From: a virus
Lineage: Duplodnaviria; Heunggongvirae; Uroviricota; Caudoviricetes
DNA: 64,000 nt
IMG/VR virus record: IMGVR_UViG_2724679236_000008
Reading direction: 5' to 3' (one strand)
A model generated the notes under the pieces. It saw only the letters and a list, made by a program, of their open reading frames with translations. It was not told where the DNA came from and searched no databases. Of this stretch, positions 11,376 through 13,934 are shown in pieces (positions within the stretch are counted from its first letter, which is position 1; every line of letters begins with the position of its first letter). A program made the translations under genes and the position numbers.

Positions 11376-12077
11376 TTATTCTGATTCTCGCTCAAAAAAC
11401 GAGCTGATAAGGGGAAGCCAATCCTCTGACACTTCGCGAGGTCGCGGTTTGCCGTGGAAAAAGATTATTCGGCAGTCTTTTGGTAATGCCCCATTCCCCC
11501 TGGAGTAACGCGCGCTCGCATATTTCGAACCAGGTTCCACAACATCGGCCTTGTAACTTACAAACCATCCTGGATACAGATCCTGAAATGCTGGTGTATC
11601 ATCGCCCATAATCTTCCGTAAGAACCCCTGATCACCCCAGCACTCAGTAGTGACACAACGAGAAATCCAACCTTCCGGATCTTGCCAGAATGAACTCCAG
11701 ATATGCGCTTTAACACTATTTGGTATCCACAGGGCACCGCTACCACGATATTGTGGATGGTAAAAATCCCTAAGCATGGTGAAGCTGGTTGGTGGATTCT
11801 CAAGGATTGGGCGTATATCACCGGCAATAACCGTGTCCAAATCCAGATAGAACAGATCATCGGTTATATCCGGTCGGAACAACTCGATTTTCGCCCACCA
11901 GCCACGGCACTTTTGCCACTGGTTGATCAATGGGACAACTTTGACGCCAGGCACATGTAAACGCTTCAGGTCTGTCAGGCAAATAATTTCATAGCCTTTT
12001 GGCAGTTGATTAACCAGCCACTGCACATCGGAAGCGTTATAGTCGCCACCAGAGCGAAGAACTAAAGCAATCTTCAT
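11376..12077 (-). CDS. putative nucleotide-sugar transferase-like protein (GT-A-like fold, DxD-type motif), 233 aa
   Basis: N-terminal [12 protein letters not shown] beta-alpha-beta start and [11 protein letters not shown]xD-like motif; ATGA overlap with upstream phosphatase gene; assignment tentative. Confidence 0.4.
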
Positions 12078-12766
12078 GCTGCACCATCACCTTTCACTTT
12101 CATCAATGTCAGGTTTCCGCAAAATACGGCACCAGTGTCGATATAATGCTGATTCCAGAATGTCTTCGGGCTTTTCACCGGAGTGTGACCAAAGATAAAA
12201 CGATCTGCGCCCGAAATTTCGCCACCAATATCATCCATCGAATCACTGATACGCTCGCGCGCCCAGACAACGTTGAAAAGCGGCACCTCCTTACCGAATT
12301 GATATTCATTATCCGGATAGTCGGCATGGGCTATAACGATAGTTTCTTGCCCGGTGTTCAACTCAATGATATAGGGCAGTCGTCTTACCAACTCCACCAG
12401 CGCCCTAGCTAATATTTCCTGATCAGCGTCCAGCATGAAGAACCATTGACCGCCATTCATTAGCCAGTTATTCACGTTGCCATCAGGACTTAACGCATCA
12501 ATCATCAGCCGCTCATGGTTGCCCATAACCGCTCTGAACCATGGCATCTGCAATAGCTCAAGGCATTTAACATTTTCGGTGCCGCGATCGATAATGTCGC
12601 CGACCGATATCAGTAAATCCTGCGCAGGGTCAAAATCCACACGATGGAGTTCGGACATCAGTCTGGTGTAGCAACCATGCAGATCACCAACAACCCAGAT
12701 ATTCCTGTATTTGGTACCGTCGATACGGTGATAAATTGTTGGTGCCATCATGTATTCTTCAGCCAT
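12074..12766 (-). CDS. calcineurin-like metallophosphoesterase (lambda Ser/Thr phosphatase / ApaH-like), 230 aa
   Basis: GDLHG, GDIIDRG and GNHE metallophosphatase motifs. Confidence 0.85.
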
Positions 12767-13374
12767 TCTTTAAGAGTCATCTGCGGAATACCTCCCATTT
12801 TCCCGCATGAAACAACGTCAATCTGTTCACGCGCAGACTGGAATAACAAAGGCAGGTGACTTAGATTTTTTGGCGTTCCGCCGGAGTGAACGCGTGGTTC
12901 TTGCGTAGCGTCAACGCCCACCAGGGCTACATGTTTGAATCCGATATGGAAAGCCAGGTTCAGAGCACCATATGCACTATTGCCGCTGGCAATTTCATTC
13001 TCATCTTCGCAAAGGCCGAAATGTGCGGACCAGCGCCACGCCCACCACTCGGGAGAATTCGTATTTTTTGGCTCCGTGCCGCGCTCAGCCACACGACGGA
13101 AGCACAGAACGCCGTCTCTGACCTCACGTTCTTTAACATCGGGTAGCGCCATGCAATAACAAACACCACGGCGACGGCGGCCACGACCAACGCGCCGCAT
13201 ATTGTCTGGCGATGGATCAAGGGTGAAAAAATAAGAAGCGCGGTTAAGCCAGTCGATGGCCCCATTGACCGCTATAATCGGCACTCCGCGCGGCGCAACA
13301 AAGTTTGCGGCGCTTGGGCCACTGCCGACGATAATAACGCGATCACTGCCTCTAAATTTATTCTTGGGAAACAT
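12748..13374 (-). CDS. GSGPS-motif protein, MptE-like / GT42 (sialyltransferase, Maf DUF115)-like fold, paralog A, 208 aa
   Basis: VIIVGSGPS...IIAVNG...[12 protein letters not shown]...VALVGVD; same motif order as paralog B and as Cst-II-type transferases (IIAGNGPS ... SG...A...LSGID); overlaps neighbours on both sides. Confidence 0.5.
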
Positions 13375-13934
13375 TGAATTGCACTGCTCCTACTTGCATT
13401 CAAAATATGTAAATCTGCGTGTTTTTTGCGGGTATCCAGGAACTGCTGTTGCCATTTTGAAATAGACACCTGCGTTGGATTCCGTAGTGCTTGAGGGTGC
13501 GCGCCATGCCAATGAAGGCCGTTTTGCAGAGAACAGTCATAGCCGACTAATACCACTACTTCAGCCCCTGATTCAGCCGCCAGACTGATAGCCTGCGCGC
13601 CGCTATTTACCCCTTCCGCCGGTCCACAATATCGCCTGTACTCCAACGAAAATGATTTCGCCGCCGCCAGGTTGGCTGTCACTTTGCGGAATCTCCCTCC
13701 CGGTATGGTGGATCCGTATTGCTTCCACCATGACAAATCACCGGCGTATAAGGCATAAATGTCATCGAACATCTGCCAGGAATTGTTAACCGCGATGATT
13801 GAACAGCCAGTTTTTTCTATAGCAGCACAGTCCTCACGAGTGAGTGACGGACCGCTACCGACACAAAAAACAGTCCTAGTCGCCCTGGGTGGTATGTTCA
13901 TTCTCAGCTGCAAATTCAGCCTCCAGGCGAGCAT
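13272..13934 (-). CDS. GSGPS-motif protein, MptE-like / GT42-like fold, paralog B, 220 aa
   Basis: VFCVGSGPSL...IIAVNN...GVNSGAQAISLAAESGAEVVVLVGYD; 3' end overlaps paralog A by about 100 nt in another frame. Confidence 0.5.
   Translation of the reverse strand: MLAWRLNLQLRMNIPPRATRTVFCVGSGPSLTREDCAAIEKTGCSIIAVNNSWQMFDDIYALYAGDLSWWKQYGSTIPGGRFRKVTANLAAAKSFSLEYRRYCGPAEGVNSGAQAISLAAESGAEVVVLVGYDCSLQNGLHWHGAHPQALRNPTQVSISKWQQQFLDTRKKHADLHILNASRSSAIQCFPRINLEAVIALLSSAVAQAPQTLLRRAECRL

Follow-up and report, generated by a model that had tools for sequence, protein, structure and literature searches.

Gene content and layout of the unit

We analysed a 64,000-nucleotide (nt) stretch of viral DNA (IMG/VR record IMGVR_UViG_2724679236_000008, Caudoviricetes), hereafter called the window, concentrating on a unit of tightly overlapping reverse-strand genes that includes positions 11376-13934. 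Comparison of this region (3.4 kb) by megablast revealed 97.9% DNA identity to phage P1 and 97.4% to phage P7, and four of its genes are pmgO, pmgP, ppp and pmgQ of P1 (hdmB, hdmC, ppp and hdmD of P7). An earlier note, made from the sequence alone, had been unable to place these genes in any described phage module; they have in fact been annotated in P1 records since 2004, where they carry the label 'putative morphogenetic function', while the P7 label is 'head morphogenesis'. Both labels are guesses from gene position rather than functions, and RefSeq names PmgO an 'alpha-2,3-sialyltransferase' and PmgQ a 'glycosyltransferase'. The four are therefore known, long-annotated P1 backbone genes whose role is functionally unexplained in the annotation, with a homology-based function for ppp only, and no paper on the function of these proteins was found in literature searches.

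The four overlapping open reading frames (ORFs) lie on the minus strand exactly where the earlier note had put them. The first, pmgO (13272-13934), encodes a single-domain protein of 220 amino acids (aa) with a predicted Maf/MptE/GT42 fold, putatively a CMP-ulosonic-acid-type glycosyltransferase; pmgP (12748-13374) encodes a distant paralog of PmgO with the same predicted fold (208 aa); ppp (12074-12766) encodes a lambda-type Ser/Thr/Tyr phosphatase of the PPP/calcineurin-like metallophosphoesterase class (230 aa); and pmgQ (11376-12077) encodes a predicted glycogenin-like GT8-type glycosyltransferase of the GT-A fold (233 aa). According to the ORF listing pmgO and pmgP overlap by 103 nt, pmgP and ppp by 19 nt, and ppp and pmgQ by 4 nt, the last junction being an ATGA that was read directly in the sequence at 12077-12074; an AGGAG Shine-Dalgarno sequence, likewise read directly, precedes the pmgP start by 13 nt. 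The unit is not confined to these four genes, since a fifth, pmgN (hdmA in P7; 13876-14031, minus strand), supported by the ORF listing and the P1/P7 annotation, is its first gene; it has a GTG start, encodes an acidic protein of 51 aa and runs 59 nt past the annotated start of pmgO. A hidden Markov model (HMM) search over the module loci found pmgN (phrog_2350) in the P1-like loci L087 and L088 only, and the gene is specific to the P1 lineage.

Two of the annotated starts may need revision. The true start of PmgO may be M12 (13901), as suggested by the N-termini of homologs and by residues 1-15 of the AlphaFold model, which fall below a predicted local distance difference test (pLDDT) score of 50; that of Ppp may be M6 (12751), which agrees with the N-terminus of lambda phosphatase and would turn the junction with pmgP into a second ATGA stop/start. 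Gene order, overlaps and flanking operators are alike in P1, P7 and the window, and the window PmgP is 100% identical to P7 HdmC. The G+C content is about 0.52 over pmgO-pmgP (12750-13950) compared with 0.45-0.49 in ppp, pmgQ and the flanks, a step that is consistent with separate origins of the Maf-like pair and ppp. None of the five proteins has a predicted transmembrane segment (maximum Kyte-Doolittle 19-mer score <=1.40).

PmgO and PmgP as Maf-like proteins

The two paralogs had been singled out by the earlier note for a shared order of motifs (GSGPS, IAVN, NS and LVG.D) and for an MptE/GT42-like fold, and both observations held. GSGPS occupies residues 26-30 of PmgO and 17-21 of PmgP; the IAVN, NSxxxA..L.LA and LVG(Y/V)D motifs are conserved in both families, and the GPS, N, D, NS and G.D elements are invariant throughout them, from which we predict that both proteins are probably active. 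Paralogy is significant at the profile level (hhalign probability 97.7%, E 1.5e-12 over 163 columns), whereas the pairwise BLASTP match is weak (E 0.003). Modelled separately with AlphaFold, the two proteins gave confident models (pLDDT 86.4 for PmgO and 95.5 for PmgP) whose best fold match was in both cases the Maf flagellin glycosyltransferase, followed by MptE and by Cst-I of family GT42, with an MptE score nearly equal to that of Maf. On these models, PmgO and PmgP share the Rossmann-like fold of Maf, MptE and GT42.

Each of these relatives differs from the pair in an informative way. Maf (PDB 5MU5, CbMaf) is a protein of ~600 aa with flanking helical domains, whereas PmgO and PmgP, at ~200 aa, are each a bare catalytic domain; ~160 residues of the 632-residue 5mu5 chain align with them, at 16-17% identity. 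Maf is also linked to flagellin and nonulosonic acid (NulO) biosynthesis genes, none of which was present among the called or annotated neighbours in >25 loci, and PmgO and PmgP are instead paired with one another and partnered with a GT8 enzyme. MptE (PF01973, PDB 8SD5) is an archaeal pterin-pathway kinase; no pterin gene was present in any module locus examined, and here the partners are glycosyltransferases. PF01973 on its own remains below threshold for the window proteins, with 23.4 and 20.9 bits against a gathering threshold of 34.6 and a match confined to the C-terminal motif, while 99 of 112 PmgO/PmgP family members match it at E<=0.01 and a natural fusion of the two proteins (P0051) reaches 44.6 bits.

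As for GT42, the nucleotide-binding motifs of that type (GxGPS, Asn, Ser-Gly and Gly-x-Asp) can be aligned, with H141/H143 of PmgO and H173 of PmgP as candidates for the catalytic histidine. The PmgO family profile gave E values of 0.3-0.8 against Cst-II chains and no match to PF06002, so that neither Cst-I nor Cst-II shows a significant sequence match, and the usual P1 hosts make no CMP-sialic acid; the name 'sialyltransferase' is an over-annotation.

PmgQ as a predicted GT8 glycosyltransferase

The fourth protein had been called a DxD-containing, GT-A-like transferase, which the profile comparisons bear out: compared with GT8 glycogenin and Gat1, the PmgQ family profile gave E 2.5e-7 to 1e-4, with individual values of 2.5e-7 for Gat1 (6mw5), ~5e-6 for glycogenin-1 and 1.9e-4 for GlyE (5gvv). 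In the YLDLDT motif, D79 and D81 of the DxD are invariant in 104 homologs, and H208, the third metal ligand, is conserved in >=90% of them; these residues align to the DxD and H..G..KPW motifs of glycogenin. PmgQ belongs to phrog_1962 ('glycosyltransferase'), and none of the 104 family members matches any Pfam model at E<=0.01, Glyco_transf_8 included. Its sequence thus identifies PmgQ as a predicted GT8 glycogenin-like GT-A enzyme with intact DxD and His. The profile match and the metal ligands are shared with glycogenin, Skp1 Gat1, pneumococcal GlyE and the lipopolysaccharide (LPS) enzymes WaaO/WaaJ, relative to which PmgQ is shorter (~200-230 aa).

Ppp as an insertion of the P1 lineage

The remaining enzyme had been described as a PPase/ApaH-like phosphoesterase. 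It is indeed calcineurin-like (Metallophos 58.7 bits, threshold 21.5; NF008516 279.7 bits), with the motifs GDLHG (27-31), GDIIDRG (56-62) and GNHE (82-85), but its full-length match to lambda phosphatase 1G5B (E 3.5e-94) identifies it by sequence as an ortholog of the lambda protein phosphatase that resembles ApaH only remotely. All catalytic motifs are shared with lambda phosphatase (NinI, 1G5B) and E. coli PrpA/PrpB; the difference lies in context, as the lambda gene is found in the nin region and the P1 gene inside a glycosyltransferase operon.

Ppp adjoins the module in P1-like elements only and is missing from all non-P1-like module loci, and phage D6 carries a close ppp alone in an unrelated context. 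The idea of a single four-enzyme pathway that includes Ppp was accordingly rejected: Ppp is a P1-lineage insertion into a variable slot between pmgP and pmgQ and lies outside the conserved module.

Distribution, fusions and the variable slot

Distribution was surveyed with one genome per species, complemented by contig look-ups and our own HMMs. A library of cluster representatives yielded 570 relatives at E<=1e-10; a scan of viral contigs with the PmgP alignment recovered only P1-like contigs at 99-100% identity. All three genes (pmgO, pmgP and pmgQ) occur together in lambdoid, P2-like, HK97-like and Mu-like prophages of Citrobacter, Enterobacter, Pseudomonas, Zhongshania, Commensalibacter and Brevundimonas, in a Sinomicrobium (Bacteroidota) locus and in one phage metagenome contig. 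Subsets were found as well: PmgP with PmgQ in Ochrobactrum and Longimicrobiales, PmgO with PmgP in Microbulbifer, PmgO with a PmgQ-like gene in Rhizobiales, and PmgO alone in Hafnia; further PmgP homologs come from Escherichia phages of 111-116 kb and from Xanthomonas and Stenotrophomonas jumbo phages. Every host found is Gram-negative. Taken together, PmgO, PmgP and PmgQ constitute a widespread phage module that co-occurs across Gram-negative phyla without Ppp.

The association extends to natural fusions, which join PmgO to PmgP (P0051, on a single contig only), PmgP to PmgQ (P0309 and P0397), and PmgO either to a GT9-like domain (P0306) or to immunoglobulin (Ig)-like domains (P0317). A MAFFT alignment of P0051 with both families misplaced PmgO homologs on its PmgP half. 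In Hafnia prophages, a 280-aa GT9 (heptosyltransferase)-like protein follows the PmgO homolog (L004, 8561-9403), and the 484-aa fusion P0306, which comes from another organism, combines the same two domain types; judged by sequence, the GT9-like partner hints at heptose as an extra sugar in some versions of the module.

The slot occupied by ppp in P1 is filled elsewhere by an S-adenosylmethionine (SAM)-dependent methyltransferase (L097), a PF03407-like GT-A protein (L098 and L117) or a GT4-like protein of the GT-B fold (L113). A hexapeptide acyltransferase separates PmgO from PmgQ in L107, where PmgP is missing, and FkbM-type methyltransferases adjoin the module in L104 and L105. These slot contents and tailoring partners correspond to the behaviour of glycan-assembly clusters. 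A fourth conserved protein of ~190 aa, with the motif W(L/I/V)D(V/A/C)D(S/G) and a weak match to the PF03407 nucleotide-diphospho-sugar transferases, was observed beside the trio at L006 9757-10335, L115 10254-10835, L117 9587-10159 and L098 8636-9184; P1 is without it and has ppp in the corresponding slot.

Genomic position of the module

The position of the module was then compared across elements. In Zhongshania, Pseudomonas and Ochrobactrum prophages it stands after the major capsid gene and before connector or head-completion genes, the capsid gene being its immediate predecessor in L097, L115 and L116. It comes directly after the portal gene in a P2-like prophage and after the TerL gene in Commensalibacter (L117, L098), is a few genes away from the portal gene in Microbulbifer, Rhizobiales and Sphingomonadaceae elements (L101, L106-L110) and follows the tail terminator gene in Brevundimonas (L103). 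The module is thus embedded in the structural gene block in L097, L098, L103, L115, L116 and L117, and is a few genes from the portal in L107. In lambdoid prophages (L003, L118-L120) it belongs to the Q-dependent late operon, between Q and the lysis genes or between lysis and terminase genes, and in P1 it is flanked by the tail genes 26/25/7/24 on one side and, on the other, by pmgR, a gene required for head completion.

Where an HK97-type capsid gene immediately precedes the module, its product ends in a short Ser-rich tail (GNLSGAS, GSLSES, SGATGS, GSLTAT and GSLTGS); the genes in question are L097 5841-7214, L115 7179-8375 and L116 6900-8330, together with those of L168 and L173. At the sequence level these tails offer a weak lead to a possible acceptor site.

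A separate observation concerns the portal gene of a Sphingomonadaceae prophage (L110, 4362-6224), whose product (Phage_portal_3, E 2e-99) is fused at its C-terminus to the anti-CBASS protein Acb1 (PF23474, E 6e-42). If the sequence is read at face value, an anti-defence phosphodiesterase would here be built into a virion protein.

Adhesin-linked copies

In five related chromosomal loci of Pseudescherichia and allied Enterobacteriaceae assemblies, the trio is arranged around an inverse autotransporter with 7 Big_1 repeats, other Big_1 proteins are encoded nearby, and no phage genes were present among the neighbours scanned. The adhesin-linked copies map to ~3300-14400 in L091-L095 and to 2029-11598 in L201. 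A further adhesin of this kind is encoded close to the PmgO::Ig-like fusion P0317, which is accompanied by a GT2 enzyme and a PmgQ homolog; this locus looks like a decayed prophage because it also contains a holin gene, a lysozyme gene and insertion sequence (IS) elements. The arrangement suggests glycosylation of intimin/invasin-type adhesins, hitherto undescribed, by the adhesin-linked trio.

Regulatory signals and dispensability

The earlier note had reported no C1 operator upstream of the unit and had considered expression in the lysogen. P1 annotates an operator there (Oppp, formerly Op83), and alignment transfers the P1/P7 annotation to 14075-14091 of the window (plus strand), which reads TATGTACTAATTAATTT. 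This site has 5 mismatches to the consensus ATTGCTCTAATAAATTT, compared with 4 in P1 and P7, and a consensus scan at <=3 mismatches therefore misses it. Among 65 P1-like sequences, the window included, the operator begins CATGCAC in 23, TATGCAC in 20 and TATGTAC in 15; the window carries the most degenerate of these three common variants, which 15 of the 65 share. As far as the sequences indicate, repression of the operon may differ among P1-like plasmids with different Op83 variants.

Directly upstream of the operator, within the 3' end of pmgM, lies the counterpart of the predicted P1 promoter PpmgN, a sigma-70 promoter-like region at 14095-14130 (minus strand); a pattern scan picked out GCGACA-17-TAAAAT at 14123-14095, a match that taken alone is no better than chance. 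The P1 record also annotates a late promoter, LPpmgL, upstream of pmgL, and this region is conserved in the window apart from its -10 element (15013-15018), which reads AATATC here and AATATT in P1; this T-to-C change of the last base could, by sequence, weaken late read-through into pmgL-pmgQ. On the other side of the unit, the operator scan and the P1 annotation locate the C1 operators Op86a/b (OpmgRa/b), at 11309-11325 (plus strand) and 11358-11374 (minus strand), and the promoter PpmgR within 11309-11374; with them the unit ends on its downstream side and the pmgR-pmgS operon begins.

Nothing found here supports expression in the lysogen: an operator, PpmgN and the late promoter LPpmgL are annotated in P1, and homologous modules belong to late operons. 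We propose that the whole unit, pmgN-pmgO-pmgP-ppp-pmgQ, would be silenced in the lysogen by C1 at Op83 and transcribed during lytic growth from PpmgN, with read-through from LPpmgL, and that its translation would be coupled by the overlapping stops and starts.

Genome-wide CRISPR interference (CRISPRi) and single-gene deletion have shown pmgO, pmgP, ppp and pmgQ to be non-essential (PMC10695390), and P1 deletions of these genes leave plaque formation and antirestriction unchanged (PMC9024508). The data for pmgN conflict, as CRISPRi knock-down reduced plating ~70-fold ('essential'), yet the deletion is viable and the downstream genes are non-essential (PMC10695390); the dCas12a roadblock beside Op83/PpmgN may disturb something else.

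Discussion

Protein glycosylation was one of several options listed by the earlier note, and it is now the best supported. We tentatively propose, as something close to an even call, that the trio is a late-expressed module for the O-glycosylation of protein, probably of the virion, perhaps using host CMP-3-deoxy-D-manno-oct-2-ulosonic acid (CMP-Kdo) and UDP-hexose. PmgO, PmgP and PmgQ would work as one soluble, cytoplasmic three-enzyme unit, in which two Maf-like single-domain transferases and a retaining, glycogenin-like GT8 transferase build a short O-linked glycan on a protein, most likely a co-made, head-associated protein of the P1 virion. All donors would be nucleotide sugars that any Gram-negative host contains, with the Maf-like pair drawing on CMP-Kdo and PmgQ on UDP-glucose or UDP-galactose. 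In E. coli lacking the native donor, Maf enzymes have been shown to use CMP-Kdo instead (PMC11339370), and CMP-Kdo is on that account a credible donor in E. coli K-12 and similar hosts. The inserted Ppp would act independently. The modification would be dispensable for plaque formation in the laboratory, and any contribution it makes would be to the stability, adsorption or shielding of the particle.

Several lines of evidence converge on this proposal. For all three enzymes, the nearest structural relatives have proteins as their substrates, the fusions and slot contents join the trio to sugar-transferring and tailoring partners, and the module is repeatedly embedded among structural genes. 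A precedent is available in mycobacteriophages, in which, as Freeman et al. 2023 is summarized in PMC12619734 and PMC10955285, phage-encoded glycosyltransferases act on subunits of the capsid and tail tube and are not needed for growth. As those accounts present them, the cassettes consist of glycosyltransferases, often with methyltransferases, among structural genes, like the present module; they differ in that the hosts are Gram-positive-type actinobacteria and in that glycosylation was demonstrated there, while here we infer it.

Other observations count against a virion target. The P1 module adjoins morphogenetic genes in general and not the capsid gene; the Sinomicrobium module (L104) lies in a block of DNA polymerase and ribonucleotide reductase genes, and that of phage EP_H11 in a block of small unannotated ORFs; and the lambdoid positions are also classic moron slots. 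Among 80 capsid relatives, a group ending in GPLTGSGS is without the module, most of the module-free relatives ending in GPLTPAA or GDLTAA. No Big_1 domain was detected in any ORF of the window with a home-made HMM. Finally, P1 virion proteomics reported no glycans, and the deletions have no known phenotype (PMC9024508).

An unlikely alternative is that the trio remodels an envelope glycan, acting on the LPS core or on another glycolipid or polysaccharide at the inner membrane face, with PmgO and PmgP as WaaZ-type Kdo transferases and PmgQ as a WaaO/WaaJ-type GT8 hexosyltransferase; the outcome would be receptor masking, superinfection exclusion or fewer progeny lost on cell debris. P1 adsorbs to the LPS core, GT8 includes the core glucosyltransferases of E. 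coli, and the PmgQ profile aligns with WaaO over the DxD, DQ and H..G..KPW motifs. PmgP gives a faint WaaZ_KDO_III match (E 0.11), the fusion P0051 has a faint PF27901 mark, hhalign to WaaZ (GT73) aligns NSxxGA..LA..LG...L.G.D at E ~0.002 with a probability of 14-15%, and the GT9 heptosyltransferase-like partners of the Hafnia prophages and P0306 would also fit. The likeness to WaaZ and WaaO is, however, at a noise-to-marginal level, so that membership of the Kdo transferases is a lead only; no waa, rfb or transport genes stand beside the module in >25 loci, and the proteins are without membrane segments. Repressor-controlled or late expression would leave little time to replace surface LPS, and this reading would not explain why the module stands between capsid genes and connector genes or surrounds Ig-like adhesins.

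We consider it unlikely to a similar degree that the trio glycosylates a host protein, be it an adhesin, flagellin, pilin or defence protein, in order to block superinfection or disarm the host. The nearest fold is that of the flagellin transferase Maf, two adhesin-linked loci and the Ig-like fusion tie the family to bacterial surface proteins, and the lambdoid copies occupy moron slots. Against this, at least 8 prophage lineages carry the module inside the packaging/head block rather than at moron hot spots, late expression would leave surface proteins little time for export, comparison with the PADLOC library gave no anti-defence link, and the deletions show neither an antirestriction nor a plating phenotype (PMC9024508).

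A role in nucleotide-metabolite chemistry or signalling, with PmgO and PmgP as MptE/thiamine-pyrophosphokinase-like (pyro)phosphokinases and Ppp as the matching phosphoesterase, appears quite improbable. PF01973 'MptE-like' is the sole Pfam match of the pair and a phosphoesterase is adjacent in P1, but that phosphoesterase is a genuine lambda phosphatase ortholog missing from all other module copies, and Maf is the top match of both models. The constant partners of the pair are moreover glycosyltransferases (PmgQ and PF03407-like GT-A, GT4-like, GT2 and GT9-like proteins) and sugar-tailoring methyl- and acyltransferases, and the P::Q fusions join its fold directly to a GT8 enzyme.

That P1 bases are decorated with sugars to evade restriction is very improbable indeed; P1 DNA is not known to be hypermodified. 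Glycosyltransferases of hypermodifying phages are well known and the L104 module does lie between DNA polymerase and ribonucleotide reductase genes, but the known enzymes are JGT-like GT-A or T4 beta-GT-like GT-B proteins linked to enzymes that form 5-hydroxymethylcytosine (5hmC) (bioRxiv 10.1101/2023.12.21.572611), no 5hmC-forming enzymes flank the module in any locus examined, and the deletions leave antirestriction unchanged (PMC9024508). A conversion module expressed in the lysogen was rejected on the annotated operator and the late-operon contexts; conversion cassettes of the gtrABC/oac type are membrane-embedded and lysogen-expressed, whereas the P1 module is predicted to be soluble, has an annotated C1 operator upstream and has homologs in late operons.

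Returning to virion O-glycosylation, a bolder form of the proposal, which we regard as doubtful, is that P1 and many phages of Gram-negative bacteria O-glycosylate their own virions with Kdo-containing glycans and that some enterobacteria have domesticated the trio for adhesins. If virion glycosylation by this module is true, phages of Gram-negative bacteria would gain their first described system of this kind, literature searches having found no other, and many prophages, of Pseudomonas, Enterobacter, Citrobacter and other bacteria, would share it. Since antibody recognition of mycobacteriophages is affected by virion glycans, the finding would matter for phage therapy and for delivery vectors built on P1; being compact, the Maf-like/GT8 trio could also serve as a tool for protein O-glycosylation in E. 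coli. P1 is among the most used phages in genetics, and about a quarter of its genes, this operon included, are without a known role. For these known genes the comparative evidence yields a specific and directly testable hypothesis, for which P1 deletion mutants already exist.

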